From the sequence record PQ818761.1: a stretch of DNA of 64,000 nt, one strand, 5' to 3'. This document shows positions 1-15,057 of this stretch, piece after piece. Numbering within the stretch: position 1 is the stretch's first letter; each line of letters starts with the position of its first letter. The notes under the pieces were generated by a model. The model did no database searches. It worked only from the letters and a program-made list of their open reading frames with translations, and was not told the DNA's origin. The translations under genes were made by a program, and so were the position numbers. The DNA is from Escherichia phage EcoM2.

Positions 1-1571
1 ACGCCACCTTCTTTGAACGTGATAAAAAAGAAGCAATTGATGAAATCTTAGAAGTCATGAATGGTGTTCTGGGTAAAGATGCTATTGGTCGAGAGCATTG
101 GGAAGCACTTCATGATTTGGGTTATCTACCAGTTGAAGTATACGCTGTAGAAGAAGGCACAGTTGTACCTATGCGTGTGCCAATGATTGTCTTCCAGAAT
201 ACTGTTTCAGGTTTCCATTGGGTAGCGGGGTATCTGGAAGATGCTTTCTCTGCTGAGATTTGGAAGGCTTGTACCATTGCAACTATTGCATTGCACTACA
301 AACGTATCTGTAAGAAGTGGGCTGACCTTACTTGTGACAACGACTTGCATTTACCTTATCAGTGCCATGACTTTGCTATGCGTGGTATGTCCGGCTTTAC
401 TGATGACGCATTTAACGCTGTAGGCCACTTAACCAGCTTTAAAGGAACTGATAGCTTCCCTGCTGTATATACAGCTAAACGCATCTACGGTCAGTCCTAC
501 CCAATCTCTGATATTGGTAGCTCTGTACCCGCCACTGAACACTCTGTAATGTGTGCAAACATTGCTTGGGAAGGTGGTAATGAGTTGATTGAAGAAGAAA
601 GACGCTTCAAAGGTGAGTTACAAACCTTCCGTCGCTTCTTAACAGAAACTTACCCAACTGGTATTGCAAGTGTTGTTTCAGACACTTATAATTTCTGGAG
701 AACTGTATCAGTAATACTACCAGAACTCCGTAAAGAGATTATGGAACGTGATGGCAAACTGGTAATTCGTCCTGACTCTGGAGACCCTGTACATATTGTC
801 ACAGGTTATAAAGCAATTCACTTAGAGTGTGCTAAAAAGGCTTATTACGAACACCTAAGCAAGCTGGAAGCCAGCGACACAATGTTGAATACTGTTCTGA
901 ACATGAAGCTTGAAAACATCAACTATGGTATTGCTGGATGGCTACTGTCAGAAGGCTACGAAATGGTTGTTGACAGAGAAGACTTTGAAGTTGCTGATAC
1001 AGTGATGTTGAAAAATGCTTATATGGTTGGTTCTGCAAACGTTGTAACACGTCCTGTAGCAGAGATTGATGGGGCTATTAAGACACTGTATAACATCTTT
1101 GGAGGGACTATCAACTCTAAAGGTTTTAAGGTACTGGATGAGCACATTGGCCTTATCTATGGTGACTCTATCACGTTGGAACGTGCAAACGAAATCCTGA
1201 AGCGTTTGTATGAAATGGGTTTTGCAAGCTCTAACGTAGTGTTTGGTGTAGGTTCTTACACTTACCAGTACATGACTCGTGACACCTTTGCATTTGCTGT
1301 CAAAGCAACTCTTGCAAGCATTGGTGGTAAAGAGATTATGCTTGCAAAAGACCCTAAAACAGATAGTGGTGTTAAGAAGTCTGCTTTTGGTGGTGTAGCA
1401 CCTATGTGGGATGGCGATAAGCTGAAAGCTGTAGATGGCTATGGATTCCAGAGCTTTGCAGATGTGCTTGAACATCCAGCTTGTGCTTTACGTTTAGTCT
1501 TTAGTGACTCTGAGCAGTTCGGTTACACAACTCTTGGTGATATTCGAAATAATATTGACAAGCAGCTTTAA
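1..1571 (+). CDS. nadV: nicotinamide phosphoribosyltransferase (NAMPT/NadV-like), 5' partial
   Basis: Frame of ORF 57..1571 stays open back to nt 1, so the gene starts upstream of the window; recalled NAMPT-like motifs (AVEEGTVVP, SVPATEHS, ASVVSDTYNFW, LVIRPDSGDP). Confidence 0.7.
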   Translation, partial: ATFFERDKKEAIDEILEVMNGVLGKDAIGREHWEALHDLGYLPVEVYAVEEGTVVPMRVPMIVFQNTVSGFHWVAGYLEDAFSAEIWKACTIATIALHYKRICKKWADLTCDNDLHLPYQCHDFAMRGMSGFTDDAFNAVGHLTSFKGTDSFPAVYTAKRIYGQSYPISDIGSSVPATEHSVMCANIAWEGGNELIEEERRFKGELQTFRRFLTETYPTGIASVVSDTYNFWRTVSVILPELRKEIMERDGKLVIRPDSGDPVHIVTGYKAIHLECAKKAYYEHLSKLEASDTMLNTVLNMKLENINYGIAGWLLSEGYEMVVDREDFEVADTVMLKNAYMVGSANVVTRPVAEIDGAIKTLYNIFGGTINSKGFKVLDEHIGLIYGDSITLERANEILKRLYEMGFASSNVVFGVGSYTYQYMTRDTFAFAVKATLASIGGKEIMLAKDPKTDSGVKKSAFGGVAPMWDGDKLKAVDGYGFQSFADVLEHPACALRLVFSDSEQFGYTTLGDIRNNIDKQL

Positions 1572-1586
1572 AAGTATATGATAAGA

Positions 1587-1607
1587 GGCTCCTACGGGAG
1601 CCTTTTT
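1587..1607 (+). terminator. rho-independent terminator
   Basis: GGCTCC-tacg-GGAGCC hairpin followed by TTTTT. Confidence 0.6.
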
Positions 1608-1624
1608 AACTTCTGGAGAAGATT

Positions 1625-1960
1625 ATGAAAATCAAAGAAATGAACATCAATATTGTCTTAGAAGAACGCTGGGAGAACATCAAGAAGCCTGAAAATGGTC
1701 ATAAGTTCCTCAACAAAATCTTAGTAGCAGCTAAAGAAGAACTGACTGGCAAGGTTGCAGCAGCAATCACAATAAAGGTCTGTGTAAAAGGTCTTCCAGA
1801 CAATCACCAATTTGCACTTGACGAGTTTAAAGAAAGCTTCTACAATCCAAACAAACAGATGCTTGAAAGTAACTTTGCAGTATCTACAAGTATCGTCCAT
1901 GACAGAAGCTTTATCCTTTACAAGAATATGAGAGGTGAGTCATGCAAGCATATTGGATAG
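1625..1960 (+). CDS. hypothetical protein
   Basis: 111-aa ORF with GAGA-type RBS upstream of ATG, co-oriented with neighbours. Confidence 0.5.
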   Translation: MKIKEMNINIVLEERWENIKKPENGHKFLNKILVAAKEELTGKVAAAITIKVCVKGLPDNHQFALDEFKESFYNPNKQMLESNFAVSTSIVHDRSFILYKNMRGESCKHIG

Positions 1961-2118
1961 AAATTTTGCTGTCACTTGGTAGTGTAGCAGTGTTTGTTTA
2001 CCTTCTTTGCAAGTACTATGCAGAGCACAAAAAATGTGACTTCTGTAACGGAGAAGGTTATACAAGGGCAGGTTGTTGCCCTATGTGTGGTGGTTCTGGT
2101 AAAATGTTTAATAAGTAA
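1942..2118 (+). CDS. small membrane protein with CxxC...CxxC zinc-ribbon-like motif (58 aa, below ORF-track cutoff)
   Basis: ATG 1942 to TAA 2116-2118; hydrophobic N-terminus then CDFCNGEG...CCPMCGGSG; fills gap before next gene; overlaps previous ORF by 19 nt. Confidence 0.3.
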   Translation: MQAYWIEILLSLGSVAVFVYLLCKYYAEHKKCDFCNGEGYTRAGCCPMCGGSGKMFNK

Positions 2119-2146
2119 TTTAACAGTAAACTAAGAGGAAAGTATT

Positions 2147-4513
2147 ATGCGCATGGTAAACGACCACGCAGAAGTGATTAAGAGTTCAACTTCTTTAGAG
2201 ACGTCTCAAGCACAGATTACAATGACACCTGAAATGTTCAGCCTTTTGAGTTCTGGTGTATATACCTTTAAAGAAAGGGCAGTGATTCGTGAACTGTCAT
2301 GTAACGCAGTAGATGCTCAGAAAGAAGCTGGAAAAGAGAATATCCCGTTCCATGTGCATTTACCTACTCGTTTTGAGCCTTACTTTGAAGTTCGTGATTT
2401 TGGAACTGGATTGACTCATGATAAAGTTATGAGTTTGTATCTAAATTACGGGGCTTCTACGAAGAATGACTCTAATGACTACATTGGTGCAATGGGTATC
2501 GGCTCAAAATCCCCATTTGCAATTGCTCAGTCATTCACAGTGTCTAGCTATGTTGACGGTGTTGTTAATAAGTACTCTGTTTATCTTGAGAATGGTATCC
2601 CTCAAGTAACTAAGCTGACCACTAACCCAACAAAAGAACCTAATGGTTTAGCTGTACGTGTGGCAGTTGCTGACCACCGTATTTCAAAGTTCTTTGAAGA
2701 GGCTGGTAATGTATACTCATACTTTGCTGTAAAACCAGAGAGTAATGTGGAGTATAATGATATATTAGCAGATATGGATGTGATTGCTCGTGAAGAAGGT
2801 GTCTATGATGCCATGACTCATAAGCATAGCTGGCGTTCAAGCAGCAATAGAACAGAGTTTAACGTGGTTATGGGTAATATTGCCTACCCAGTTAATATGG
2901 AGGCATTACTTGGTGATGATTTCTTCAAAGTCTTGCCAGAATTTTTCCGTAGGAGCGTAGACCTTGTAAACATCTACATGCCTATTGGTTCAGTTGCTAT
3001 CGCAGCTTCTCGTGAAGCATTGCAGATGAATGACACGACAAAAAATGTTATCATTGAGGCTACTAAAAAGATAACTGAAGCAATTACAAAGGATGTTATC
3101 AAGAAAGTTAATAGCCAACCTACACTCATGGATGCTGCACAGGCTTATGCTGAGTTACGTTTGAACTCACGAGAGATGTTTAATGCTGTGTGTCCAAAGC
3201 TAGAGTGGGGTGGTGTTAAGCTTGATTCTCTGGAAGAAGAATTACTAAACATTCGTCGTGGAATTATCTACGCAGAAGACGGCTCAGTCATTTATGAACG
3301 TGACGGCAAAGGTAATATTAAGGTTGATAGGAACGGGAACAATATCCCTAAAGTAGATTATCTTTATGACCCAGTTGCTTATGTCAAGTTCAACTCTTTA
3401 GAGAGTAAGATTCGTGCAACATCGCTTTCCTACACTCAAGAGGCAAGTATGTTCAATATCTTTGGTGCAATGCGTAAAAGCCAAATTGAACAGTTTTTGT
3501 TTGTTATAAATGACCGTCGCAATAAAAACGGTACTGAGAAGACTGTAGGACGCAATCAAATCTTGCGTGGTGCATGTCGAGACTATGCCAGTGAGTCTAG
3601 TCTGTTTCACAGATACAATGGTATTGTCTTTGTATTCTCGACTGAAAAAGAGCTAGATGACTTAATCAATCTACACAAACTTGACAAAAGCTTGTTAAAG
3701 ATTGTGAAGATGTCTGATAAGGAACACCATTATCAGCGTAAAGAAGCTGTAAGAGGTGTTGTAAAACTCTGGAAAGCTGTTCCAGCAGAAGGTGTAGCTT
3801 CCTATAAAGAGGTTTCAGAGGACTTAGACACAATTGAAGAGCCTCAACTTTATATCAAGGCAGTCGGTGACACAGTTGATGGCGAATGTTTTTGCTCATC
3901 TCCAGAAGATGTAGCTAAGTCAGTTGCCAATGTCATTGGAAAGACAGTCTATGTTTTCCGAAAAGCAAATTGGAAAAAGATACCAGAAGACTGGATTGAA
4001 GTAGATGAGAAGCTCTTGAACGACAGCTTAACTGATGTTCACTGGATTAACCATAACAGGTATATGACACGTATCTATATGAATGGTGTTCTTGACCTTA
4101 CAAGCAGTTGGATTATTGCCAGAAACTTTACGTTCAATAACAGGAAGATTTCTCGTGGCTATTGCTATTCACGAGACACAAACAAAACTATCTTCTTAGA
4201 AGGCAATGAAGATGCTGTAGAGGCAATGTTCGGTAAAATCCAATACGTTGCTGCACCGTTTGCATACACTTACACTATTAGCAGATTGCAAACTTTGAAA
4301 GAATGCCTTGACAATGATACAAAGCTATACAAGAAAATTAAGAAAGCTGGTGACCGTATGGTTATTAAGGTGACAAACTATCTTTCAAAAAGAAAACAAG
4401 AAAACTTCTTGCTTTCTCATTTAGATTGGAATAAAGTGTCACCCATCGAAGTGAGTAAGTTCTTAGGCTTTGATGTGAAGTGTGTTCCAGAAGGGACTAC
4501 AATTTACGATTAA
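2147..4513 (+). CDS. rIIA: rIIA-like protein with N-terminal GHKL-type ATPase fold
   Basis: 788 aa; Bergerat-fold-like motifs (VRDFGTGLT, GAMGIGSKS); size and position before a second large gene match the rIIA-rIIB pair of T4-like and Felix-O1-like phages. Confidence 0.55.
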   Translation: MRMVNDHAEVIKSSTSLETSQAQITMTPEMFSLLSSGVYTFKERAVIRELSCNAVDAQKEAGKENIPFHVHLPTRFEPYFEVRDFGTGLTHDKVMSLYLNYGASTKNDSNDYIGAMGIGSKSPFAIAQSFTVSSYVDGVVNKYSVYLENGIPQVTKLTTNPTKEPNGLAVRVAVADHRISKFFEEAGNVYSYFAVKPESNVEYNDILADMDVIAREEGVYDAMTHKHSWRSSSNRTEFNVVMGNIAYPVNMEALLGDDFFKVLPEFFRRSVDLVNIYMPIGSVAIAASREALQMNDTTKNVIIEATKKITEAITKDVIKKVNSQPTLMDAAQAYAELRLNSREMFNAVCPKLEWGGVKLDSLEEELLNIRRGIIYAEDGSVIYERDGKGNIKVDRNGNNIPKVDYLYDPVAYVKFNSLESKIRATSLSYTQEASMFNIFGAMRKSQIEQFLFVINDRRNKNGTEKTVGRNQILRGACRDYASESSLFHRYNGIVFVFSTEKELDDLINLHKLDKSLLKIVKMSDKEHHYQRKEAVRGVVKLWKAVPAEGVASYKEVSEDLDTIEEPQLYIKAVGDTVDGECFCSSPEDVAKSVANVIGKTVYVFRKANWKKIPEDWIEVDEKLLNDSLTDVHWINHNRYMTRIYMNGVLDLTSSWIIARNFTFNNRKISRGYCYSRDTNKTIFLEGNEDAVEAMFGKIQYVAAPFAYTYTISRLQTLKECLDNDTKLYKKIKKAGDRMVIKVTNYLSKRKQENFLLSHLDWNKVSPIEVSKFLGFDVKCVPEGTTIYD

Positions 4514-4592
4514 AGTGTTTGACAAGGGGCTTCAAAGCCCCTTAGAATAGCCTCACAAAATGATTTATTAACTAACAAGAGAGAGTAATAAG

Positions 4593-5702
4593 ATGACTAC
4601 TAAAACTAAAGCACAGATTGACGCAGAAATTTATGAACTGGTTAAAGAAGGTAAGCTGACTAAAACAGCTATTGCACAGAAGTTCAATACTTCAACCCGT
4701 TCAGTTGGTCGTGCTGTAGAGCGTCATGAAGCAACCTTAAAAGGCAAGAAAAAGGCAACTTCTAAGCCAGCTACAAAGACTTTGAAGCAAGTTGCTAAGT
4801 CAGTTAAAAAGAAAGCTGGCAAACCAGTTGAAAAGGTTGTTAAAGACACTGTACAGAAAGCTCCAGTAAATAAACTGCACGAAGCTATGCAGAAAGATGA
4901 TAAGATTGAGTACATGATTACTGGTGACTCTGTAATTATGACTTACGGTTCAGAATCTGAAATTGTTGAGTCTACTCATCCGAACTATCAAGAGATTGTA
5001 GTTCATGTTGTGAAAGGTGAGTTCAAGAAAGCATTTGAACTGATGAACATTCGTAAGTCTATCGAAAACTTCACTCAGGGTGCTATCACAATCAAAGGTG
5101 ACAAGTTATTCTACGGTGCTGTTGAGATGCGTTCTACTCTGGTTGACCGTATTCTTCACATGATGAAGACTGGTGATAAAGGTTTTGAACGACTTGTAAT
5201 GTTCTTCGAAAAACTGATGGAAAACCCATCTAAAGACTCTGTAGAACAACTTTGGGGCTTCGTATCTCACCTTGATGTCGAAATTGATGAAGAAGGCTAC
5301 ATCATTGGTTGGAAGAAAGTATCCACTCGTGAAGGCAAGCTGGTTGACTCCCACACCTACAAAGTACCTAATGATTTGGGTAACGTTGTAGAAATGCCAC
5401 GTTGGATGGTTGATAATAACCGTAACGTAACTTGCTCTCAGGGTCTTCATGTTGGTGCTTGGGATTATGTTCGTTGCTTCTCAGGTGATACAATCCTGAA
5501 GGTTCGTGTCCATCCACGAGATGTTGTATCTGTTCCGACTGATTACAACGATATGAAGATGCGTTCATCCCGTTATGAAGTTGCAGCAATCGTTGATAAT
5601 CAACGTAAAGTGTTGAAAGCATGGGACGGTAAGACTGAAGCTTTGCATGTCATCGTTGGCACTGCTGGTGAACTCATCTCCCAACGTAAACGTGAAATCT
5701 AA
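4593..5702 (+). CDS. rIIB-like protein (putative)
   Basis: 369 aa immediately downstream of the rIIA-like gene; N-terminal HTH-like segment; assignment by synteny only. Confidence 0.4.
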   Translation: MTTKTKAQIDAEIYELVKEGKLTKTAIAQKFNTSTRSVGRAVERHEATLKGKKKATSKPATKTLKQVAKSVKKKAGKPVEKVVKDTVQKAPVNKLHEAMQKDDKIEYMITGDSVIMTYGSESEIVESTHPNYQEIVVHVVKGEFKKAFELMNIRKSIENFTQGAITIKGDKLFYGAVEMRSTLVDRILHMMKTGDKGFERLVMFFEKLMENPSKDSVEQLWGFVSHLDVEIDEEGYIIGWKKVSTREGKLVDSHTYKVPNDLGNVVEMPRWMVDNNRNVTCSQGLHVGAWDYVRCFSGDTILKVRVHPRDVVSVPTDYNDMKMRSSRYEVAAIVDNQRKVLKAWDGKTEALHVIVGTAGELISQRKREI

Positions 5703-5718
5703 TAAGTAATTTCTTAAA

Positions 5719-5741
5719 AGGCTGCTTCGGCGGCCTTTTTT
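5719..5741 (+). terminator. rho-independent terminator
   Basis: GGCTGC-ttcg-GCGGCC hairpin followed by TTTTTT. Confidence 0.6.
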
Positions 5742-5802
5742 ATTTGTATTTTGTGCAGAGTACTGTATAATTGTTGTCACGATAAACTAAACAGGAGAAC
5801 CA

Positions 5803-6351
5803 ATGAAGAAATTGATTCTAAGTTTGTGCTTAATGTTTACAGCACACTTATCTTATGCAGTTGACTGCCCAGAGCTATCAATTAGCCAAAAAGTAAACAT
5901 GTTAAAAGCTTACCAGTATGGTGAGAATAATATGGGTAAAGGTTGGGGTATTACTCTAGCTGCTATAGCCTTACAAGAGTCAGAGTTAGGTCTGAAGGTA
6001 GAGAATAAAAAGACACATGATTATGGTATTTTCCAGAATCACTTGAAGACTGTTGTAAAGCGTAACAAAATTAGTCCTAATGTGGCTAAAAAGAAACTCT
6101 TAAGAGACTTTGATTATGCTGCGAAGGAAACTCACAAAGAACTTGAGTTTTGGACAAAGGTGCATGGCCAGCCAAAGTCAAAGAAGACTTTACAAAAAGT
6201 TTTAGCATCATATAATGCTGGGTATTCGTACAAAATCCCTAAAGCTAAGAAATATTCTCAAGATGTCTATAACAACATGAAAGTTATTGCTCAATGTGAA
6301 TTTGCAACAAACATTTCTAAGGTAAATCATGAAAAAATTAAGAAAGTCTGA
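5803..6351 (+). CDS. secreted lytic transglycosylase-like (SLT domain) protein
   Basis: N-terminal signal peptide (MKKLILSLCLMFTAHLSYA); SLT-like motifs LQESELG, YGIFQ, SYNAGY. Confidence 0.45.
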   Translation: MKKLILSLCLMFTAHLSYAVDCPELSISQKVNMLKAYQYGENNMGKGWGITLAAIALQESELGLKVENKKTHDYGIFQNHLKTVVKRNKISPNVAKKKLLRDFDYAAKETHKELEFWTKVHGQPKSKKTLQKVLASYNAGYSYKIPKAKKYSQDVYNNMKVIAQCEFATNISKVNHEKIKKV

Positions 6352-7024
6352 TGAAGTACTGTGTCATGCTTATGACTTACATCCTCATGAGTTAGGTCTT
6401 GATTCCTGTGTATGGACTCCAGAACAGTGTAGGGATTTTGAAGACACCGCAAGAGAAGTTGTATGTTCACTCGAAGAGTTTCACACATCAGAGACAATTG
6501 TGAATGTTGTAGATAAAGAGACTGGACAAGCTATAGGTGTAAGGCGTGACAGCTTAGTCATAGTCAATAAAGACCTTGTAGAAAAAGGTAACCTTATCTT
6601 AGCAGACATTGATGGTGTTCTTACAAATTTTAATCACGAAGATTGCTCAACGGAATTGATTGATGGGTCATTTTCACAGTACACTAATTTGCTTGACTCT
6701 GTAAGAGCAAAACCAACGTATGTTTTCAATATTATTGATGCAATTGCTAATCATGCCGCCATTGGACTCTTGACAGCGAGAGGTGAATCTCAGAGAATAC
6801 CTACTGAGATGTTTTTAAGGCATTACATAGAGCATGATTACATACTTTTTATGCGTGGTTTTGGGACTAACTCTATAAGTGCAGAAAGTTTGAAAGTGAG
6901 GATGATTCAGTCTTGCATTCTGCCTTACTTTAATATAGTATGTTTTATAGAAGATACAGAGAAGAATGTGCAGAAGGTGAACAGAATCCTTCCACACATT
7001 AAAACCATGTTAGTTAAACATTGA
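6329..7024 (+). CDS. hypothetical protein with C-terminal HAD-like nucleotidase motifs
   Basis: 231 aa; LILADIDGVLTNF (HAD motif I-like), LLTARG, FIEDTEKN; functional call tentative. Confidence 0.35.
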   Translation: MKKLRKSDEVLCHAYDLHPHELGLDSCVWTPEQCRDFEDTAREVVCSLEEFHTSETIVNVVDKETGQAIGVRRDSLVIVNKDLVEKGNLILADIDGVLTNFNHEDCSTELIDGSFSQYTNLLDSVRAKPTYVFNIIDAIANHAAIGLLTARGESQRIPTEMFLRHYIEHDYILFMRGFGTNSISAESLKVRMIQSCILPYFNIVCFIEDTEKNVQKVNRILPHIKTMLVKH

Positions 7025-7034
7025 GAGAAAACTT

Positions 7035-7499
7035 ATGAATAATATCATTACGGTAGCACTGGACGATACGGCAAACAAATCTGAAGTAGTTCGTAAAATG
7101 ATTCAAGGTAACTTTGAAGGTAAAATTTTCCGTGCTGTTAATGTAAAAGCTGATGGTAGCATTCGTGAATATCGTGCATTGTTGAACGTTAAGAAGCACG
7201 TAAAAGGTGTTGGTTCAACGACTGCACACAAAGAAAACCTGATGACTATCTATGATATGGGCAAGGCTTCAGAGTTAGGTGCTGAAGGTATCGTTAAAGA
7301 AGGTGCTCCGTATCGCTCTTTCAATCTGGAAACTACTCTTATGCTTTCCTTTACAAGTGGTTCTAAAACAATCACTTACCTCTTTACTGATGCTGCAACG
7401 GTATCTGCTATTAAGGATAGCACTGTCAAAGCTGGCGTAGTTGCTGCTGCAAAAGCTTCTTCGATGGCTGCAAATATCCTTGCTAAAGTTCTCGGTTAA
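7035..7499 (+). CDS. hypothetical protein
   Basis: 154-aa ORF, followed by terminator. Confidence 0.5.
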   Translation: MNNIITVALDDTANKSEVVRKMIQGNFEGKIFRAVNVKADGSIREYRALLNVKKHVKGVGSTTAHKENLMTIYDMGKASELGAEGIVKEGAPYRSFNLETTLMLSFTSGSKTITYLFTDAATVSAIKDSTVKAGVVAAAKASSMAANILAKVLG

Positions 7500-7510
7500 G
7501 GTTAAGATAC

Positions 7511-7532
7511 AGGCTCCTTCGGGAGCCTTTTT
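7511..7532 (+). terminator. rho-independent terminator
   Basis: GGCTCC-ttcg-GGAGCC hairpin followed by TTTTT. Confidence 0.6.
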
Positions 7533-7551
7533 CATTTCAGGAGATTGTTAA

Positions 7552-7899
7552 ATGACATTTAAAGAGTTCTGTCAAGCTACTTTCATAATTGTTTTCTTAG
7601 TTGGGACAGGTGTCTGGGGAGGATACTCTTACAGAGGCTACCAAGTTGCTGAAGCTGAGTTAAGCAATGAGAAACTAATAAGTGTTGCTAAAGATGCTTA
7701 TCAGGAAGGTTTAGCCACACTCAGCACCAATTACAAAAATGATTTGAAAGATGTGCTTGCTAAGAATAAGCACACAAAAGAGGTACTAACATATGAAAAA
7801 ACTAAGCCAGAGTTTTATAATGTTTGTGTTACTGACAATTATGTCAGGGTGTTCAACGAACAAAGTGAACAGTACATTCAAAAACTCCCAAGTAAGTGA
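7552..7899 (+). CDS. i-spanin-like protein (N-terminal TM, helical periplasmic domain)
   Basis: 115 aa; TM segment FIIVFLVGTGVWGG; overlaps a lipoprotein ORF in another frame. Confidence 0.4.
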   Translation: MTFKEFCQATFIIVFLVGTGVWGGYSYRGYQVAEAELSNEKLISVAKDAYQEGLATLSTNYKNDLKDVLAKNKHTKEVLTYEKTKPEFYNVCVTDNYVRVFNEQSEQYIQKLPSK

Positions 7900-8062
7900 G
7901 AGTGACAAGTACACACAAGAAGAGTCAAGATTCACTGTCAAAGGTAATACTGGTAGTGATGTGGCAGCAGCCCTTGAGTTTTATCGTGATGGTTTTTACC
8001 AGTGCACAATTAAAGCTAATAACCTTATTGATATGATTTTATTAGGAAATAAACAGCAATGA
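7793..8062 (+). CDS. o-spanin-like outer-membrane lipoprotein
   Basis: 89 aa; lipoprotein signal with lipobox (LTIMSGC); starts inside the preceding gene in a different frame and extends beyond it. Confidence 0.4.
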   Translation: MKKLSQSFIMFVLLTIMSGCSTNKVNSTFKNSQVSESDKYTQEESRFTVKGNTGSDVAAALEFYRDGFYQCTIKANNLIDMILLGNKQQ

Positions 8063-8328
8063 CAGAGAATGAAGATACTTTTTACGTAGAAGGTTACTTA
8101 CTGTTACCACGACCAAAAGAAACTTATATGCGAATTGACTTCTTGCCAACCATTATGGATAATGTGATGTGTCATATCTTTATGCAAGGTGTCACAGCAC
8201 AGCTTAAGCACGTTGGTAAAGAGTGCAAAATAAAGGTTGACACTCATCCAGAAATCAAAGAGAATCACTACACATGGTTCTTACCAGATTCTAAAGAAAT
8301 CTTAGCAGTTCTTAAAACGAGGAAATGA
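8059..8328 (+). CDS. hypothetical protein
   Basis: 89-aa ORF, overlapping start/stop with neighbours. Confidence 0.45.
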   Translation: MTENEDTFYVEGYLLLPRPKETYMRIDFLPTIMDNVMCHIFMQGVTAQLKHVGKECKIKVDTHPEIKENHYTWFLPDSKEILAVLKTRK

Positions 8329-8639
8329 TTATGCAATTCCAGCCAACCAATCGTGGATTTTCTTATGCAGAATTTAAAGATGCTAAAGGGGAAATTTGTA
8401 CTTTACAAGAGAGTTCATCATATGAACCATGTATCTGGTTAGGTGCTAAAGAGGTCTCTGTTCAGTATCTAGATGGTGGCTGGAAAACACTTGATATCCC
8501 AGCATTAGTAGGCAAAGATTTTGTAGGTAACCAAAGAATGAAACTCAACCAAGAACAGGTGAAAGAGCTATTGCCATACCTTCAGTACTTTGCTGAAAAT
8601 GGTGAATTACCAACAGAGGAACTTACAAATGCAGATTAA
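8325..8639 (+). CDS. hypothetical protein
   Basis: 104-aa ORF in operon-like arrangement. Confidence 0.45.
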   Translation: MIMQFQPTNRGFSYAEFKDAKGEICTLQESSSYEPCIWLGAKEVSVQYLDGGWKTLDIPALVGKDFVGNQRMKLNQEQVKELLPYLQYFAENGELPTEELTNAD

Positions 8640-8955
8640 CGGAAGAGACTTTGTAGCCGTTTACTATGAGAAAGATAAAGAAGTTGGTGTAGCACAAGTA
8701 TCTTATGGTAATGGTAAGTGGTTGTATGGGACAATCGCAGTAGTCGGAACAAGAAGTGATACAAAAACTTTTAAAGACTGTGTTGACCTTCTTGAAGAAT
8801 CCATCCATAATCATTGGTGTCTGATATGGATGACTGACAACGAAGTGATAGAACGCTTCAAAAAGATTGGTATCAACATTGATAGCATTGAACATGTTGA
8901 TTTATATGAGCTAACTGAGAAGGTAAACTATGAAAGTAATACTAGCCAGAGATAA
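8590..8955 (+). CDS. hypothetical protein
   Basis: 121-aa ORF; start may be downstream of the track start. Confidence 0.4.
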   Translation: MLKMVNYQQRNLQMQINGRDFVAVYYEKDKEVGVAQVSYGNGKWLYGTIAVVGTRSDTKTFKDCVDLLEESIHNHWCLIWMTDNEVIERFKKIGINIDSIEHVDLYELTEKVNYESNTSQR

Positions 8956-9157
8956 AAAGACACGGAAACTTATCAGGTCAGCGGTGTTCATTGGACGAAA
9001 TGAGGTCATACCATTTACAGCAAATGATGTGATAGCTTACCGGAAGAACTTAGTATTCACTGACTGTTTACGTGGCTTCATCTCTGAACCATTAGAACAC
9101 TTTAAAAGCCGTTGTGGTAAAGGAATCATCATTCAAGAGGCAATTATTCATGGCTGA
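8930..9157 (+). CDS. hypothetical protein
   Basis: 75-aa ORF. Confidence 0.4.
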   Translation: MKVILARDKKTRKLIRSAVFIGRNEVIPFTANDVIAYRKNLVFTDCLRGFISEPLEHFKSRCGKGIIIQEAIIHG

Positions 9158-9350
9158 CTTCTGCAAAGACTGTTCTATAGAAATGTTTGGACGTGATACA
9201 GGTGACTTAAAAGGTCTTATCACTGAAGATGACTTTAAAGCTGGCTATGCAATGCCAGTAATCTGTGAAGGTTGCGGGTGTATCTGGGTAGACCACGAAG
9301 GACAACGTGTAAAACCTTCAGAAGATAAAGAGTCTTGGGAGAGATGTTAA
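9114..9350 (+). CDS. hypothetical Cys-rich protein
   Basis: 78 aa with CxxC and CEGCGC motifs. Confidence 0.4.
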   Translation: MVKESSFKRQLFMADFCKDCSIEMFGRDTGDLKGLITEDDFKAGYAMPVICEGCGCIWVDHEGQRVKPSEDKESWERC

Positions 9351-10130
9351 ATGGGTATTGTAAAAGTTGTGAAAGGTAACTTACTGGCTGCCTTCAAAAA
9401 CACAGATATCGAGTTAATTGCTCATGGTTGCAACTGTCGTAACCTCATGGGTGCTGGAATCGCTCAAAAAATTGCTAAGATTTTCCCAAAAGCTGAAGAA
9501 GCTGACAGGAAATTCCATAAGAAGTTTGGCTACAATGCTCACGATATAGGATACCAGATGATTGGTGAGGTGTCACATGCTCGAACAGAGTATGGTTACA
9601 TTTTTAACCTATATACACAGTTGGATGTTGGAAAGTGTGCATCATACCGATACTTAGTGGAGTCACTAGAAAAACTCCGTAAGTTTTGCTGGATGCACAA
9701 CATTCGTAAGATTGGTTTACCCATGATTGGGGCAGGTATCGGTGGGTTAGACGCACAAGCCGTGAAAAGCCTCATTAATAGCATTATGTACAACGTTGAT
9801 GTGTACCTATACGTCTATGATGAAGCAATGGCAACTGTAGTTACCCCTAAGTATGCCACCTCAGCACCACAATTCTATGATGGTGTTGTTCTCAGTGACG
9901 GTAAGTCTAACCATGTTACCCTCTATCAACTTGTTGAAGGTAAGGTAGAGGTTAGTTACCCTCTGGTTAGTGAGATGGGTATGTGTAACAGTGAAATGTT
10001 CTCAGTTGACCCGTTTGGTAGATACGAAGGGGTATTCTTTGATAACTACCCAGCAGCATACATCTACACAACAAATCAGGATGAAGTTCACTACTTGCTG
10101 TATTCTAAAAAGTTCAAATTCATAAGCTGA
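9351..10130 (+). CDS. macro-domain (ADP-ribose binding/processing) protein
   Basis: 259 aa; macro-domain-like motifs HGCNCRNLMGAGIA and LPMIGAGIGGL. Confidence 0.55.
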   Translation: MGIVKVVKGNLLAAFKNTDIELIAHGCNCRNLMGAGIAQKIAKIFPKAEEADRKFHKKFGYNAHDIGYQMIGEVSHARTEYGYIFNLYTQLDVGKCASYRYLVESLEKLRKFCWMHNIRKIGLPMIGAGIGGLDAQAVKSLINSIMYNVDVYLYVYDEAMATVVTPKYATSAPQFYDGVVLSDGKSNHVTLYQLVEGKVEVSYPLVSEMGMCNSEMFSVDPFGRYEGVFFDNYPAAYIYTTNQDEVHYLLYSKKFKFIS

Positions 10131-10163
10131 TTAGCACTTCACATTATCTACAAATCATCCAAG

Positions 10164-10210
10164 AAGGCTGCCTAACCAATTGAAAAATTTAAGGTAAGGC
10201 GGCCTTTTTC
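10164..10210 (+). terminator. putative terminator (long-loop hairpin plus T-run)
   Basis: AAGGCTGCC ... GGCGGCCTT followed by TTTTC. Confidence 0.4.
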
Positions 10211-10374
10211 ATTTCCAATTTGTGCAGGTATCTGTAGAGGTCTGCACAAATACCTCAAAAAATCTCACCTCCAGATAGAAAAATCATTTTCAAAACGTGC
10301 AGACCCCGCTCAGGTCGGGCAAGAAAAATCATTTTAGAATTGTGCAGGTAGGATTTTATAGAGAGCCAGACCAG

Positions 10375-10405
10375 CCCCTCTCCCCCTCTTACTCCCCCTC
10401 TCCCC
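10375..10405. other. C-rich tract (i-motif) / G-quadruplex motif on the complementary strand
   Basis: CCCC-tct-CCCCC-tcttact-CCCCC-tct-CCCC; four C-runs with 3/7/3-nt loops, unusual in this AT-rich genome. Confidence 0.5.
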
Positions 10406-10526
10406 AAAAGTCAAGAGAAAAATTTGTAGCGGATTGAAAAATAATTCTTGATTTGTGTTCTGTTTTGTGGTAGTCGTGTGCGCCCGTTTCATTACAGTTT
10501 TGCTAAAAATATTTTTAAAATTTTTC

Positions 10527-10618
10527 TTGACTCTTTGAACGTGGTTATCTAGTATTTGCATCAACAGGGAGGGAATGTCCTTCCCCACTAAATAAAGTCC
10601 TAAACTGGAGATTCAAAA
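10527..10618 (+). promoter_or_regulatory. early promoter module A (TTGACT-N17-TAGTAT) with 5'-leader hairpin and conserved RBS
   Basis: Sigma70-like hexamers; leader hairpin GGGAGGGAATGTCCTTCCCC; conserved ACTAAATAAAGTCCTAAACTGGAGATTCAAAAATG. Confidence 0.55.
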
Positions 10619-11002
10619 ATGAAATACCGTGCACCTAAATTCATCAACAAAGACAACTTTCGCAACGCACTGGAGAAGTCACTTGATGAAAGTTTTAAAG
10701 GTAACATTATCGTTGTTCACGCATTCAATTTTAAGTATGATGTAAACGGGAATAGAATCAACCATTACACGGCAACCATGTTAGATGGTACACTTTCAAG
10801 TGAAAAAGCCGTACTAAATGCACTGGCAGGACGTGGAAAGGTATTAGTAAGATGTGATAAGAGACGTTATCAGGGCGGCGCATATGGTTATGATGATGCT
10901 GTTTACCATCTTGAAAATATGGGCTATCAAGTAGAAAAAGCTGGAGCATCACAAATCATCGGCAGCGATGGTTATGTAACTATCTTCAAAATTAACAAAT
11001 AA
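10619..11002 (+). CDS. hypothetical early protein
   Basis: 127 aa; ATG preceded by conserved module-A leader with GGAG RBS. Confidence 0.6.
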   Translation: MKYRAPKFINKDNFRNALEKSLDESFKGNIIVVHAFNFKYDVNGNRINHYTATMLDGTLSSEKAVLNALAGRGKVLVRCDKRRYQGGAYGYDDAVYHLENMGYQVEKAGASQIIGSDGYVTIFKINK

Positions 11003-11007
11003 AGTGC

Positions 11008-11088
11008 TTTACAGGGGGCTTATAGTTCGATAAAGTAAGCCCCAGATAAAGAGCTTTACCACTAAATCCTAAATTGGAGAACTTAAAA
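11008..11088 (+). promoter_or_regulatory. early promoter module B (TTTACA-N17-TAAAGT) embedded in GGGGCTTA/TAAGCCCC hairpin, plus conserved leader
   Basis: Repeated 6 times with the same architecture; hairpin arms covary between copies. Confidence 0.5.
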
Positions 11089-11382
11089 ATGGCTATTATC
11101 AAAAACGTTGTAATTGCTGCAAAAACTCGTGATGACGCTCGCGTTATGGCTAAAAAGTTATGCGGGAAAGTGGTTGACAACGGAAAACAATCTGCTGTAA
11201 GGTGGGGCGTGAAGGTTGATAAACAGTTGAAGTTAAAAAATTCACCGATAAACCTTTTTACATGTGTAAACACTATCGGTAAGACAAATGTATACACGAA
11301 AAAGGCATACATTAGACGCGTAGCATTAACATCCCCCATTCGTACAATGAGAAGTTATGCAAAGCTGAAAATTAACAAATAA
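11089..11382 (+). CDS. hypothetical early protein
   Basis: 97 aa from ATG 11089 behind conserved RBS; track ORF start 11074 judged an upstream extension. Confidence 0.55.
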   Translation: MAIIKNVVIAAKTRDDARVMAKKLCGKVVDNGKQSAVRWGVKVDKQLKLKNSPINLFTCVNTIGKTNVYTKKAYIRRVALTSPIRTMRSYAKLKINK

Positions 11383-11387
11383 AGTAC

Positions 11388-11467
11388 TTTACAAGGGGCT
11401 TAAAAGCTGATACCTTAAGCCCCAGATAAAGAGCTTTACCACTAAATCCTAAACTGGAGATTCTAAA
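11388..11467 (+). promoter_or_regulatory. early promoter module B (TTTACA-N17-TACCTT)
   Basis: Copy of module B with hairpin GGGGCTTAA.../TTAAGCCCC. Confidence 0.5.
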
Positions 11468-11980
11468 ATGAAAACTGTAGACGCTACCTTTGAAGTTGTA
11501 AAAGAAAAATTTTCCATCATCTACGAAGCGGTAAATTGCTACGAAGCAAGCCATAATCTCGTTAATTGGGAGTTTACAAACGACCATCAAGGCGGTGTGA
11601 CTGTTAAAAATCCTAACTGTCAGCATAATGATTTTAAATATGCAAACCCTTTGCATTACAGCCTTAAACAGCTTTCAAGTGACTATGCAAAACAAGGCCG
11701 GGAAAATCCATCAAAAGAGGCTTACGCAAGCTTACAAAAAGAACTAGAAAGAGATTTAGAGGCTTCAGAGTACAACCTTGCCGCGAAAGTTGTGGATGCA
11801 AACGGTAACACGGTTTTAGAAAGTTTTTATCTTGGTTATGCTTTCGATTGGTGCTATCGTGACGGCGATGATTTAGAGGATAGACTAAAAGAAGAGGTGA
11901 ACAATTCAGACGCAGAAACTGAAGTATTAGAACGTTTGGAATCGTTGAAAGATTCAGTGATGAATATCTTTAAGAACTAA
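11468..11980 (+). CDS. hypothetical early protein
   Basis: 170 aa behind module-B leader. Confidence 0.6.
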   Translation: MKTVDATFEVVKEKFSIIYEAVNCYEASHNLVNWEFTNDHQGGVTVKNPNCQHNDFKYANPLHYSLKQLSSDYAKQGRENPSKEAYASLQKELERDLEASEYNLAAKVVDANGNTVLESFYLGYAFDWCYRDGDDLEDRLKEEVNNSDAETEVLERLESLKDSVMNIFKN

Positions 11981-11989
11981 ATAGACCTC

Positions 11990-12072
11990 TTTACACGGGG
12001 TTATCAAGTTGGTATGATAGCCCCAGATAAAGAGATTTATCAAATAAAGCCCTTAAACTAGGAGATTCTAAA
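11990..12072 (+). promoter_or_regulatory. early promoter module B variant (TTTACA-N17-TATGAT)
   Basis: Hairpin arms changed to GGGGTTATC/GATAGCCCC (compensatory). Confidence 0.5.
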
Positions 12073-12369
12073 ATGAAATTATCAAATCAAGTGCGTGAAA
12101 ATTTGAGCAAATTACTCAACAAAATTGATTTTATCGAGACATCAAGGAATAGGCATGATGTTATGGAATGGTTACACGGCAAAATAAAAGGTCGTCGTGT
12201 AGTGATTTGCTTATGGAACAGTTGCAGGGAGTATAAAAAACCTGTATTACAAGTTAATATATACGATAATACTTTTAAAAGTCCTGTAAAGTCTAAAAGC
12301 GATTTATTAGAATCCTATGAGATAACTGTAAATGGCAAAGTATCACGTAAAGAGGAAACACCATGTTAA
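12073..12369 (+). CDS. hypothetical early protein
   Basis: 98 aa behind module-B leader. Confidence 0.55.
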   Translation: MKLSNQVRENLSKLLNKIDFIETSRNRHDVMEWLHGKIKGRRVVICLWNSCREYKKPVLQVNIYDNTFKSPVKSKSDLLESYEITVNGKVSRKEETPC

Positions 12370-12695
12370 TGACTGGTATCACTGCAATCATTGCCATTTT
12401 CGCGCTATATAAGGCATATAAAGCCTATAATCTAGCAAGTAAGGCAATTACGCAGCAGGTTAGCAATAACCTTGTAGAAAGCTTTCTAGGGCGTCTCAGT
12501 GATGAGCAAATAAAGCGGCTAGAGATGAGCTTCAGATATAAAGCGAAAACCTATCAGATAAGTGACATCTTTAAAGATGATTTTCAGTTAGTTGATGATT
12601 ATAATTCTCTGATAAATGCTTTAAACATCAATGACTTGAAAGAATATCACGCTGTAATTGTTCAAGAATTGAGCAAACGAAAACAAATCTGTTGA
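12363..12695 (+). CDS. hypothetical early membrane protein
   Basis: 110 aa; N-terminal TM segment (ITAIIAIFALY); start overlaps preceding stop. Confidence 0.5.
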   Translation: MLMTGITAIIAIFALYKAYKAYNLASKAITQQVSNNLVESFLGRLSDEQIKRLEMSFRYKAKTYQISDIFKDDFQLVDDYNSLINALNINDLKEYHAVIVQELSKRKQIC

Positions 12696-12787
12696 CACTG
12701 GTTTTTAGATAGATTAAATTACACATCAACGGGGAGGGAATGACCTCCCCCCCCACTAAATAAAGTCCTAAACTGGAGATTCAAAAA
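12692..12787 (+). promoter_or_regulatory. early promoter module A (TTGACA-N17-TAAATT) with leader hairpin
   Basis: Same architecture as 13744..13837. Confidence 0.55.
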
Positions 12788-12946
12788 ATGTTTTGTGCAG
12801 GTGATAAAGTTGTCTGGAATGATATAGATGACGGTTTATGTACGAAAGTTGTTGTTATCTTAGAAATTGATTATATCACTGGTGTTGCAACTGTAGCAGA
12901 TAATGATATAATCTTTGATGTCTTAATTAGTGAACTGTCAAAATAA
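12788..12946 (+). CDS. small hypothetical protein (52 aa, below ORF-track cutoff)
   Basis: ATG 12788 directly behind module-A leader/RBS, TAA 12944-12946. Confidence 0.4.
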   Translation: MFCAGDKVVWNDIDDGLCTKVVVILEIDYITGVATVADNDIIFDVLISELSK

Positions 12947-12971
12947 AGTCCTTAAACTAGGAGATTCAAAA

Positions 12972-13244
12972 ATGTACACTACTAACAACGGTCGCACCTT
13001 AAACGTAACCCTACGCCACTATGTGAACGGTGTAATGCACTTCGAGGATTTACAAGCTGAACAGCACATTTTGGATTGGCAACTTGCAGGATTCCAAAAA
13101 ACTGCTACCGGATACGGGAAAAAGATTCCAACTAGCTGGAAAGTATACTACGAAGGCCGTTTGCGTAGAATTTATCAAGATGTATGCGGCAATAGCGCAT
13201 CAAGTTACATCATAGTAAAAGGCAAAAAGCTGCATTTAGCATAA
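12972..13244 (+). CDS. hypothetical early protein
   Basis: 90 aa from ATG 12972 behind conserved RBS; track ORF start 12930 judged an upstream extension. Confidence 0.55.
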   Translation: MYTTNNGRTLNVTLRHYVNGVMHFEDLQAEQHILDWQLAGFQKTATGYGKKIPTSWKVYYEGRLRRIYQDVCGNSASSYIIVKGKKLHLA

Positions 13245-13249
13245 AGTAC

Positions 13250-13329
13250 TTTACAAGGGGCTTATAAGTCTGTACAGTAAGCCCCAGATAAAGAGCTTTA
13301 CCACTAAATCCTAAATTGGAGATTCAAAA
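13250..13329 (+). promoter_or_regulatory. early promoter module B (TTTACA-N17-TACAGT)
   Basis: Copy of module B. Confidence 0.5.
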
Positions 13330-13734
13330 ATGGCTATTAATAATCGTGAGTTATCTATCTTAAAAGCACGTTTGACCGTTAACCGGATTAATGTTATCAC
13401 ATCAGCAGCACCGGATGAAACACTGCAAAACATTATTGGGAAGATTCAAAGTGTTATCTTAGACGTTGAAAGCGTAAAAAACTCATTGGCTGACGTTGCA
13501 GCCGGTATCACGCTAGACGGTGCACAACATGAGATGGCCGACATGTTAGGCAAATCAAAGGTAATGAATAAAGAATTAGACTTGAAAATGTTTCGATTTG
13601 CTGTTAAAGTGTGGCTATCCGTCGAGTATGACGCTAACTTTGCAATCGCTGACTTTTTCGCCACTTGGTTGCAGCGTAATTTGTCAAATCATGATTTTCG
13701 TAATATCTGTGATGCAATTTATGCAGAACTCTAA
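13330..13734 (+). CDS. hypothetical early protein
   Basis: 134 aa behind module-B leader. Confidence 0.6.
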   Translation: MAINNRELSILKARLTVNRINVITSAAPDETLQNIIGKIQSVILDVESVKNSLADVAAGITLDGAQHEMADMLGKSKVMNKELDLKMFRFAVKVWLSVEYDANFAIADFFATWLQRNLSNHDFRNICDAIYAEL

Positions 13735-13743
13735 AAAATTTTG

Positions 13744-13837
13744 TTGACACTGGTTTTTAGATAGATTAAATTACACATCAACGGGGAGGGGATGACCTTC
13801 CCCACTAAATAAAGTCCTTAAACTAGGAGATTCTAAA
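13744..13837 (+). promoter_or_regulatory. early promoter module A (TTGACA-N17-TAAATT) with leader hairpin
   Basis: Hairpin GGGGAGGGGATGACCTTCCCC then conserved leader. Confidence 0.55.
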
Positions 13838-14035
13838 ATGGCTATTATTAACGGCTTAACCATTGAAACAACACACATCAAAGATATCAAAGTTGGTGAT
13901 GTAGTCCTTTCCCACGGCGTAGAAAAAACTGTCACTGTAAAGGATATCAAAGAGGATTCTTTCATGGGTAGAACTCTCTTCGGTGATTCTTATTGCTTAG
14001 GTTATCTTGCAGTTTTAAAAGTTGTCAAAAATTAA
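13838..14035 (+). CDS. hypothetical early protein
   Basis: 65 aa behind module-A leader. Confidence 0.5.
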   Translation: MAIINGLTIETTHIKDIKVGDVVLSHGVEKTVTVKDIKEDSFMGRTLFGDSYCLGYLAVLKVVKN

Positions 14036-14047
14036 GTAATAAAGTAC

Positions 14048-14127
14048 TTTACAAGGGGCTTAAAAAGTTGGTATCTTAAGCCCCAGATAAAGAGCTTTAC
14101 ACAGTCCTTAAACTAGGAGATTAAAGA
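14048..14127 (+). promoter_or_regulatory. early promoter module B (TTTACA-N18-TATCTT)
   Basis: Copy of module B. Confidence 0.45.
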
Positions 14128-14376
14128 ATGATGAATTATTTAAACATTCCCGACACTTGCAGACTGTTAACGCAACCAGAAAATTTAGGTAAGGCTTACC
14201 TATACCATATGCCAAATAATACGGCAAAAACTTATAGTTACACTGTTAACCGATTCACGGCATACGCTGCAAAAAACGGTTACAAGGTTGTTACTCAAAA
14301 AGTAACACTGTTTACAACTGTTGAGGAACTCCCCACGGTTGCAGTTAAACTGATTTTTTCAAAGAAAACTAAATAG
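14128..14376 (+). CDS. hypothetical early protein
   Basis: 82 aa behind module-B leader. Confidence 0.5.
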   Translation: MMNYLNIPDTCRLLTQPENLGKAYLYHMPNNTAKTYSYTVNRFTAYAAKNGYKVVTQKVTLFTTVEELPTVAVKLIFSKKTK

Positions 14377-14381
14377 ATTTC

Positions 14382-14461
14382 TTTACACGGGGTTATCAAG
14401 CTGATAAGATAGCCCCAGATAAAGAAATTTATCAAATAAATCCTAAACTGGAGATTCAAAA
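14382..14461 (+). promoter_or_regulatory. early promoter module B variant (TTTACA-N17-TAAGAT)
   Basis: Hairpin GGGGTTATC/GATAGCCCC. Confidence 0.5.
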
Positions 14462-15004: not shown

Positions 15005-15036
15005 AACCCTATGCAATCACATTATAAACACTATTC

Positions 15037-15057
15037 AGCCCCTTGTAGGGGCTTTTA
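15037..15057 (+). terminator. rho-independent terminator
   Basis: AGCCCC-ttgta-GGGGCT followed by TTTT. Confidence 0.55.

Follow-up and report, generated by a model that had tools for sequence, protein, structure and literature searches.

Escherichia phage EcoM2 (sequence record PQ818761.1) is the source of the 64,000 nucleotides analysed here, a stretch that we call the window. It opens inside a gene (nt 3-1571) that, by orthology to experimentally tested proteins, almost certainly encodes Namat, the nicotinamide ADP-ribose transferase that is enzyme 2 of the phage NARP1 system, and it carries at 9351-10130 a macro-domain gene whose product is probably a hydrolase directed at C1'' of ADP-ribose (ADPR) and used in counter-defence. 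The reading that we favour, and hold to be quite possible rather than probable, takes the two together: Namat would act as a NARP1 enzyme, and the macro protein would have ADPR-1''-phosphate as its main substrate, in the manner of the phage phosphatase Adpp. The Namat half of this reading is already known, as it is a published NARP1 system in the genus of its discovery. The macro protein is, as judged from its sequence, a distinct two-domain, NARP1-unlinked and allelically dimorphic subfamily of the macro family that includes Adpp and the Tk.4 protein of T4-type phages.

Namat and its NARP1 partner

The window is a Felixounavirus genome. By megablast, its nt 1-10200 matched 276 phage records, almost all of them Felix O1-like myoviruses (Felixounavirus, Ounavirinae) with Escherichia, Salmonella, Shigella and Citrobacter as hosts, and 170 of the 276 gave a single match spanning at least 80% of these nucleotides at roughly 94-96% identity. 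The window is also colinear with Bas63 (Escherichia phage JohannRWettstein; MZ501086, complete genome), starting at Bas63 position 53,884, running across the genome end and reaching ~28,100.

The first open reading frame (ORF), at 1..1571 on the + strand (frame from nt 3, stop codon at 1569-1571), holds the 3' 522 codons of the Namat gene. Its product matches Pfam PF04095 NAPRTase (E=9.9e-35, 120.8 bits for a cut-off of 20.8) and PHROG 448, "nicotinamide phosphoribosyl transferase" (E=2.6e-176), and is identical at 513 of 522 positions (98%) to residues 72-593 of Bas63 gp80. As gp80, of 593 residues, is aligned only from residue 72 onward, the first 71 codons of the gene fall outside the window, which thus holds the C-terminal 88% of the protein; the SCL clamp loop (beta1-beta2), which supplies an adenine-stacking residue and is present in the Bas63 protein modelled in PMC12774641, falls in the out-of-window N-terminus.

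The closest matches of the fragment in the PDB are 9w5x and 9w5w (E=2e-111, against 1e-47 for bacterial and 1e-38 for human Nampt), and the residue numbering of 9w5x agrees with the published SpbetaL1 Namat structures (PMC12774641). Aligned to 9w5x, the Nampt-like catalytic core at 366..785 (+ strand) carries the motifs HDFAMRG (F189 and R192 in SpbetaL1), GTD (D215), VPATEHS (A242 and the catalytic His245) and IRPDSGD (R306 and D308), the roles of these residues being those described in PMC12774641. All six core positions compared residue by residue (F189, R192, D215, His245, R306, D308) are kept. An earlier note on this DNA, which had called the enzyme a NAMPT, had named loss of active-site residues as the sign of a catalytically dead protein; these residues are intact, and the window enzyme is predicted not to be dead. 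The signature of the selectivity-clamp helix (SCH), defined in PMC12774641 as GS-X-phi-X-phi-X-phi-TRD, is found as GSYTYQYMTRD at 1251..1283 (+ strand), with Met at phi3 where Asn or Val is usual (the SpbetaL1 motif is GSFTYQYNTRD). Between two HMMER alignment domains there is a gap (query 273-356; 819..1070, + strand) that corresponds to an insertion of ~84 aa which the crystallised SpbetaL1 Namat does not have; it follows the IRPDSGD strand, is common to Bas63 gp80 and almost invariant, and is not discussed in the structural paper (PMC12774641). The distant contigs L013 and L014 also encode a long Namat, of 594-610 aa.

NARP1 consists of Adps and Namat and rebuilds NAD+ from ADPR and nicotinamide (Osterman et al., bioRxiv 10.1101/2024.02.11.579819). 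It was discovered on genes 79-80 of Bas63, the deletion of which leads to sensitivity to SIR2-HerA and abolishes NAD+ recovery (bioRxiv 10.1101/2024.02.11.579819). In the window phage, a host NADase defence (SIR2-HerA/Nezha, Thoeris, DSR, SEFIR) would cleave NAD+ to ADPR and nicotinamide, the Prs-like Adps would pyrophosphorylate ADPR to ADPR pyrophosphate (ADPR-PP), and Namat would join ADPR-PP to nicotinamide, so that NAD+ is restored. The evidence for a preference for ADPR-PP over phosphoribosyl pyrophosphate (PRPP) and for rescue from defence was obtained in vivo in the case of Bas63 genes 79-80 and in vitro in that of SpbetaL1 (bioRxiv 10.1101/2024.02.11.579819); for the window enzyme, preference for ADPR-PP and rescue from NAD+-depleting defence are to be expected from its 98% identity to Bas63 gp80.

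The gene directly 5' of Namat in the complete relatives finno and Bas63 is Prs-like and annotated as ribose-phosphate pyrophosphokinase, which corresponds to Adps; finno, Felix O1 and Bas63 are "Adps-associated" in the tables of the NARP1 paper, and finno is also in its Namat table. Since the window holds neither Adps nor the N-terminal clamp loop, both features rest on relatives. The Adps proteins of finno (L001:4863-5741) and Bas63 (L009:7746-8624) are 80% identical, with the first 60 residues the most divergent, next to a Namat that is ~98% conserved. The earlier note had named an NMN adenylyltransferase or a PRPP synthetase as expected partners that may lie upstream: a Prs-like gene does lie there in finno and Bas63, and the adenylyltransferase has to be given up, the partner in relatives being Adps.

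A classical NAMPT would instead make nicotinamide mononucleotide (NMN) from PRPP and nicotinamide and leave a phage or host NMN adenylyltransferase to complete NAD+, as in NARP2. The Pfam, PHROG and NCBIfam names of the matching families all read nicotinate or nicotinamide phosphoribosyltransferase, and Namat keeps some PRPP-dependent NMN synthesis in vitro. This chemistry is nevertheless very improbable for the window enzyme, which is 98% identical to a protein acting in NARP1 and has the Namat-specific clamp motif, whose neighbour gene in relatives encodes Adps and not Nmnat, and for which no NMNAT-like gene was seen among the scanned window ORFs or in the Bas63 annotation; the NAD+ recovery of Bas63 was also examined in a host without pncC and nadR (bioRxiv 10.1101/2024.02.11.579819). 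We regard classical NAMPT/NMNAT salvage as effectively refuted by the clamp motif, the identity to gp80 and the Adps partner. What stands of the earlier proposal is a PF04095-family enzyme in an NAD+-restoring counter-defence; the NAMPT/NMNAT chemistry falls.

The ORF directly after Namat (1625-1960) has no Pfam match, and there is therefore no evidence at that place for an accessory like RyDEP, an example of the NARP1 "feeder" enzymes that act on other ADPR derivatives. Gene 81 of Bas63 (114 aa), which directly follows Namat in that phage, has no counterpart in the window, where the junction is at 1624-1627.

The macro protein and its two domains

The macro ORF (9351-10130, 259 aa) was matched to Pfam PF01661 at E=5.6e-7 and 30 bits (gathering cut-off 22) over residues 25-140, and contains the motifs AHGCNC at residues 24-29 and MGAGIA at residues 33-38. 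Profile searches thus place both genes, the Namat ORF and the macro ORF, where the earlier note had them, with the macro motifs that it quoted and with matches far above chance level. The macro domain proper takes up residues 1-158 (9351..9824, + strand), with His25 and Asn28 in AHGCNC, Gln90 in NLYTQ and a diphosphate loop GAGIGGLD. An AlphaFold2 model built on 34 homologues reached a predicted local distance difference test score (pLDDT) of 92.4 and a predicted template modelling score (pTM) of 0.89, and its N-terminal 157 residues superpose on the macrodomains of DarG, TARG1 and Poa1p (Foldseek E ~1e-10 to 1e-11, target-normalised TM 0.77-0.87). H25, N28 and Q90 are invariant in the 34 homologues. 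The domain was further aligned with the Adpps of phages Gary and PaP1, T4-type Tk.4, PhiKZ AdfM and TARG1; the human TARG1 sequence in alignments A2, A5 and A6 agrees with the HMMER alignments over chain positions ~20-146 of 4j5q. Homologues were found by tblastn in 2,827 phage records, and the window protein is a member of this phage macro family with a His, Asn and Gln active site.

Residues 159-259 (~100 aa) and the stop codon (9825..10130, + strand) form an orphan beta-rich C-terminal domain that occurs only in the Ounavirinae-type clade of two-domain macro proteins. It has no structural or sequence similarity to the DarT-binding domain of DarG and does not match the NCBIfam DarG model. 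In a neighbour-joining (NJ) tree the two-domain proteins (246-281 aa) form a clade of their own with 96% bootstrap; the deep nodes, on which its placement relative to the Tk.4 and Adpp groups depends, are unsupported.

The macro gene exists in two alleles. The type found in the window is rare, with at least 90% identity in only 12 phage records (including finno, 96%), and ~245 Felixounavirus records, Felix O1 and Bas63 among them, carry an allele that is 40% identical to it overall (macro domain 51%, C-terminal domain 23%). At the DNA level, the similarity between the window and Bas63 is 91-95% up to ~9,493 and then collapses until ~10,600 (BLASTN), and the megablast matches of most relatives end at 9,365-9,493. 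We delimit accordingly a replaced cassette at 9366..10600 (+ strand, BLASTN against Bas63), which comprises the macro gene and the downstream spacer between flanks of ~90-96% identity. The spacer itself (10131-10618, 488 bp, 61% A+T) has no convincing ORF and is only 78% similar to the part of Bas63 where two small genes, 96 and 97, lie on the reverse strand.

The C-terminal domain may bind a variable host protein. An interaction with the Namat insertion was considered and appears unlikely, the insertion being almost invariant and the domain 23% identical between alleles; charge or DNA mimicry was also discarded, as the isoelectric point (pI) ranges inconsistently from 4.9 to 9.3 across the clade.

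Between Namat and the macro gene downstream of it are 7.8 kb and ~15 genes, among them rIIA, rIIB and the genes for an SLT-like protein, a HAD/PNKP-like protein and spanins. Two strong terminator-like hairpins fall in this interval: one at 5716..5739 (+ strand; 10-bp stem followed by a T-run) stands after rIIB and parts the Namat block from the downstream genes, and the other at 7511..7528 (+ strand; a 7-bp stem, 5 of its pairs GC, and then a T-run) precedes the block of which the macro gene is the last. The two genes, which the earlier note had treated as a pair, are therefore not a pair in the operon sense. The layout Namat, rIIA, rIIB, HAD/PNKP-like gene and macro gene (~9-10 kb downstream) is kept in distant Ounavirinae-like contigs, and NARP1 is in the same genome as the macro gene in every close relative. 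The gene at 6329-7024, "polynucleotide kinase" in relatives (PHROG 3970), gives a weak HAD/PNKP-type phosphatase signal with no kinase domain, and its product may be a stand-alone phosphatase.

Substrate and role of the macro protein

Adpp of Vibrio phage Gary (KNV71_gp137) is a phosphatase that converts ADPR-1''-phosphate to ADPR; aRES, a RES-domain defence, yields this substrate, which is unusable by NARP1, and the system with Adpp, NARP1-AP, overcomes aRES (bioRxiv 10.64898/2026.01.28.702374). The Gary Adpp mutants H24A and N27A lose function (bioRxiv 10.64898/2026.01.28.702374), and H24 and N27 correspond to H25 and N28 of the window protein. In the reading that we favour, the macro gene would be separately transcribed and yield a two-domain product, the N-terminal macro domain of which, a hydrolase of the His/Asn/Gln type, would remove a substituent on C1'' of ADPR to give free ADPR. 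Its main substrate would be the ADPR-1''-phosphate made by RES-domain NAD+ phosphorylases such as aRES, and the protein would act in trans as an Adpp-like feeder, so that NARP1 becomes a "split" NARP1-AP.

The sole biochemistry on a His/Asn/Gln phage macro protein is a phosphatase activity, which favours such a role, as does the occurrence of NARP1 alongside the macro gene throughout the subfamily. The window protein is 31-38% identical to the Adpps of NARP1 operons (tblastn E=6e-18 to 7e-17 for those of Pakpunavirus), and macro homologues are embedded in NARP1 or border on it in no fewer than five unrelated lineages (Thalassavirus, Pakpunavirus, Acinetobacter phages, phiPsa374-like phages and Pseudoalteromonas phages). 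River4, a Vibrio phage, has the gene order Prs-like, macro, NAPRT-like. The Aeromonas phage CC2 and the E. coli phage ESCO9 carry both macro and NARP1, unlinked; among the supplementary entries listed, at least two of the ten lineages with an unlinked macro gene that were checked have NARP1.

Several observations weigh against an Adpp-like role. Adpp has been detected as a macro gene no more than two genes from the Adps-Namat pair, a count in which NARP1-AP makes up 15% of NARP1 phages (bioRxiv 10.64898/2026.01.28.702374); the window gene, at ~15 genes from Namat and beyond both hairpins, falls outside that distance, and the published Adpp table contains no Felixounavirus (bioRxiv 10.64898/2026.01.28.702374). 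Adps is outside the window, and finno-type Adps is found with both macro alleles; the alleles of the two genes do not co-segregate and therefore give no linkage signal. Most macro-bearing lineages checked are not in the NARP1 lists, within the same supplementary entries. The rapidly diverging second domain has no obvious need in a small-molecule phosphatase. Further, the NJ topology, although unsupported, places the window clade next to the Tk.4 group; Tk.4 is equally similar, has the same motifs, comes from a phage that was not found among the entries of the NARP1 tables, and is required by it against DarTG2; and the Gln-type macro protein SCO6735 of Streptomyces cleaves thymidine-linked ADP-ribose.

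These last points belong to an alternative that we consider possible but doubtful, in which the macro protein would be an AdfM-like orphan antitoxin that removes DarT2-type ADP-ribose from thymidines of phage single-stranded DNA independently of NARP1, with a C-terminal domain that may bind the toxin. Knockout of T4 tk.4, named AdfM for anti-DarT factor Macrodomain, sensitises T4 to DarTG2 (HIDEN-SEQ preprint 10.1101/2025.11.20.689424); the T4-type homologues of the window protein are tk.4 products, 33-34% identical to it, with HGCNC, NLYTQ and IGAGIG exactly preserved. The evidence on Tk.4 is purely genetic, which tells against carrying its role over. The biochemistry comes from gp104 of PhiKZ, also AdfM, which strips the ADP-ribose added by DarT2 from DNA and is DarG-like with N23 and K78 (PMC13309987), and to this validated protein the window protein is only 25% identical. 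Two macro types have independently received the name AdfM, namely T4 Tk.4 (His/Asn/Gln, Adpp-related) and PhiKZ gp104 (DarG-like, Asn/Lys), and the active-site motifs of T4 Tk.4 are common to the ADPR-1''-phosphate phosphatase Adpp.

The top NCBIfam and PADLOC matches of the window protein are DarG (E=1.4e-15 and 1.4e-16), as are its top Foldseek matches, DarG macrodomains. The scores point the other way: with the NCBIfam DarG model, PhiKZ AdfM obtains 137.8 bits, the window protein 57.4, PaP1 Adpp 49, Bas63 gp95 48, Gary Adpp 35 and T4 Tk.4 30, for an equivalog cut-off of 250 bits, and the window protein, below this cut-off and matching profile positions 2-153 of 338 only, is far from the PhiKZ value and within the range of the validated phosphatase. 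From these scores it therefore groups with the His/Asn/Gln macro proteins and not with true DarG-type enzymes. In SCO6735, Gln85 stands at the position of the catalytic Lys, and the Q85A mutation abolishes activity; because this protein, whose Gln85 matches Q90 of the window, hydrolyses ADP-ribose linked to thymidine, absence of the Lys does not exclude de-ADP-ribosylation of DNA.

The layout of a macro domain followed by a second domain parallels DarG2, and the fast evolution of the C-terminal domain (23% identity for 51% in the macro domain) is as expected of a module that binds a host protein; the lack of linkage to NARP1 also suits an antitoxin. Against this, the C-terminal domain is unlike the DarT-binding domain of DarG in structure and in sequence, its pI across the clade speaks against a general DNA mimicry, and the literature searched contains no DarTG phenotype of a Felixounavirus (nor, for Felixounavirus or Bas63, one against aRES).

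Four discriminators between Adpp and AdfM were tried and failed. In the ranking of PDB sequences, the validated Gary Adpp also has TARG1 first and barely detects Poa1p; in fold comparison, DarG, TARG1 and Poa1p all match at E ~1e-10 to 1e-11; the missing catalytic Lys is missing in T4 Tk.4 and SCO6735 too; and in the NJ tree with bootstraps the two-domain clade alone has support (96%). Sequence, motifs, fold, profile scores and tree cannot separate the Adpp role from the AdfM role. The removal of ADP-ribose marks, which the earlier note had attributed to the macro domain, is only one of the two roles in play: among the tested relatives, the nearest with biochemistry is a small-molecule phosphatase and the nearest with genetics counters DarTG2; and its more general idea of an NAD/ADP-ribose-centred set of anti-defence genes is retained, without the specific chemistry and the linkage that it implied.

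The two activities could also reside in one promiscuous C1'' hydrolase, both a phosphatase of ADPR-1''-phosphate and a de-ADP-ribosylase of DNA or other targets, from which the freed ADPR would feed NARP1. Adpp, Tk.4 and the window protein have one motif set, are mutually ~30-38% identical and show no supported subdivision, both reactions break a bond at ribose C1'', and viral macrodomains that de-ADP-ribosylate proteins also dephosphorylate ADPR-1''-phosphate in vitro (cited within bioRxiv 10.64898/2026.01.28.702374). The NARP1-embedded members, however, stay adjacent to NARP1 under selection, which suggests specialisation, and we judge this proposal improbable. It also seems improbable that the protein has a housekeeping or other role, be it a Poa1p-like clearance of RNA-repair by-products, cleavage of C1''-linked Thoeris signals such as His-ADPR or pure binding of ADP-ribose. 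Poa1p is related to it in structure and in sequence, the macro gene has a HAD/PNKP-like gene 2.3 kb upstream of it, and RyDEP illustrates that feeder enzymes can use other ADPR derivatives; but no Tpt1 (2'-phosphotransferase) or RNA ligase was seen in the region, the family has no experimental precedent for such a role, and the invariant catalytic residues argue against a pure binder.

Unlikely too, although it would give both domains a part, is a dual-mode factor in which the Gln-type macro hydrolase would reverse an ADP-ribose-based attack and the C-terminal domain would bind and block the host enzyme responsible for the adduct (DarT2, aRES or another ADP-ribosyltransferase or NADase), by analogy with the two-pronged mode of DarG but from an unrelated fold. 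The two diverged alleles in otherwise near-identical Felixounaviruses would then be specificity variants for different host toxins.

Genome context and comparison with known systems

No further NAD/ADP-ribose gene was found among the 20 larger ORFs (at least 120 aa) scanned at 10-34 kb and 62-63 kb. An intergenic repeat family of ~60-110 bp occupies 10559-16895, each copy preceding small + strand genes (examples are 10559-10621, 10988-11098, 11368-11473, 12682-12787, 13241-13343, 15290-15400 and 16814-16895), and each repeat cross-matches many intergenic sites of Bas63 at 80-95% identity; these may be repeated promoter or leader units. Some segments depart from Bas63: within the ORF at 8325-8639 (104 aa), ~280 bp (8336-8615) have no Bas63 counterpart; in the tail-fibre region (54645-56660) DNA similarity is weak, 77% or less, which is probably host-range variation; and at 61997-63164 two minus-strand ORFs (146 and 200 aa) have no Bas63 match, the 200-aa one also having no Pfam match. 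A protein of 471 aa at 27118-28533, just upstream of a tRNA-rich region, combines DUF2828 (E=1.9e-28) and DUF7788 (E=1.7e-43).

Automatic annotation still mislabels Namat as NAMPT or NAPRT and Adps as Prs, and ~250 sequenced Felix O1-like phages, some of them candidates for therapy or biocontrol, carry the two-domain macro protein. If it is an Adpp acting in trans, counts of NARP1-AP based on adjacency alone underestimate the capacity of phages to defeat aRES; if it is an AdfM, the Felixounaviruses hold a counter-measure to DarTG2. Either way, the single active site of Adpp and Tk.4/AdfM makes it worth asking if both defences are covered by one enzyme family. The allelic replacement and the orphan C-terminal domain are a natural experiment on specificity.

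Among known macro proteins, Gary Adpp has in common with the window protein the macro fold, the His and Asn, the Gln in an N-x-Y-x-Q strand, the G-x-G-[IL]-x-G loop and a NARP1 in the genome. It differs in being 31% identical, ~157 aa long, single-domain (Adpps are of ~150-170 aa) and inside the operon, whereas the window protein has 259 aa, an extra domain and a gene 7.8 kb from Namat; the GD-x-x-KLG loop of Gary Adpp is absent from the window protein, whose loop there is 8 residues longer. T4 Tk.4 agrees in its three motifs and in not being adjacent to NARP1 genes, and differs as a single-domain protein of 155 aa with a role known genetically only; the T4-type phage RB55 is not in the NARP1 tables. 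PhiKZ gp104 and the DarG2 macrodomain (PDB 5M3E) are of the macro class by fold (Foldseek E=2.7e-11) and have the Asn in common with the window protein; DarG-type enzymes use Asn and Lys (N22/K80 in TaqDarG, N23/K78 in PhiKZ) without the His, and the window protein has by alignment Gln90 or Leu91 at the Lys position, with Y-T-Q-L for F-P-T-K in gp104. SCO6735 (PDB 5E3B) has, like Q90 of the window, a Gln in place of the catalytic Lys, and yeast Poa1p (PDB 6LFQ), the founding ADPR-1''-phosphate phosphatase, has a catalytic His that corresponds to H25 and has been studied as the mutant H23A; both are cellular, single-domain and distant from the window protein (phmmer E=9e-4 for SCO6735 and 3.5e-5 for Poa1p).

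For Namat, the crystallised SpbetaL1 enzyme (PMC12774641; 9w5x and 9w5w) is alike in its catalytic core and its SCH motif, and the window protein departs from it by the ~84-aa insertion, by Ser for A362 and by Met for Asn or Val at phi3. NARP2 (Nampt and Nmnat, as in Vibrio phage KVP40) and cellular Nampts share the type II phosphoribosyltransferase fold and the chemistry at nicotinamide N1, but they are without the adenine-clamp motif and work with Nmnat, whereas the window-type Namat has the motif and, in relatives, Adps as its partner. The nearest known system is NARP1 of Bas63, which differs from the window in that Adps and the SCL loop lie outside the latter and gene 81 is absent from it, and which has in common with it the gp80 identity of 513 in 522 residues, the 84-aa insertion, the downstream order from rIIA and rIIB onward and the genus.

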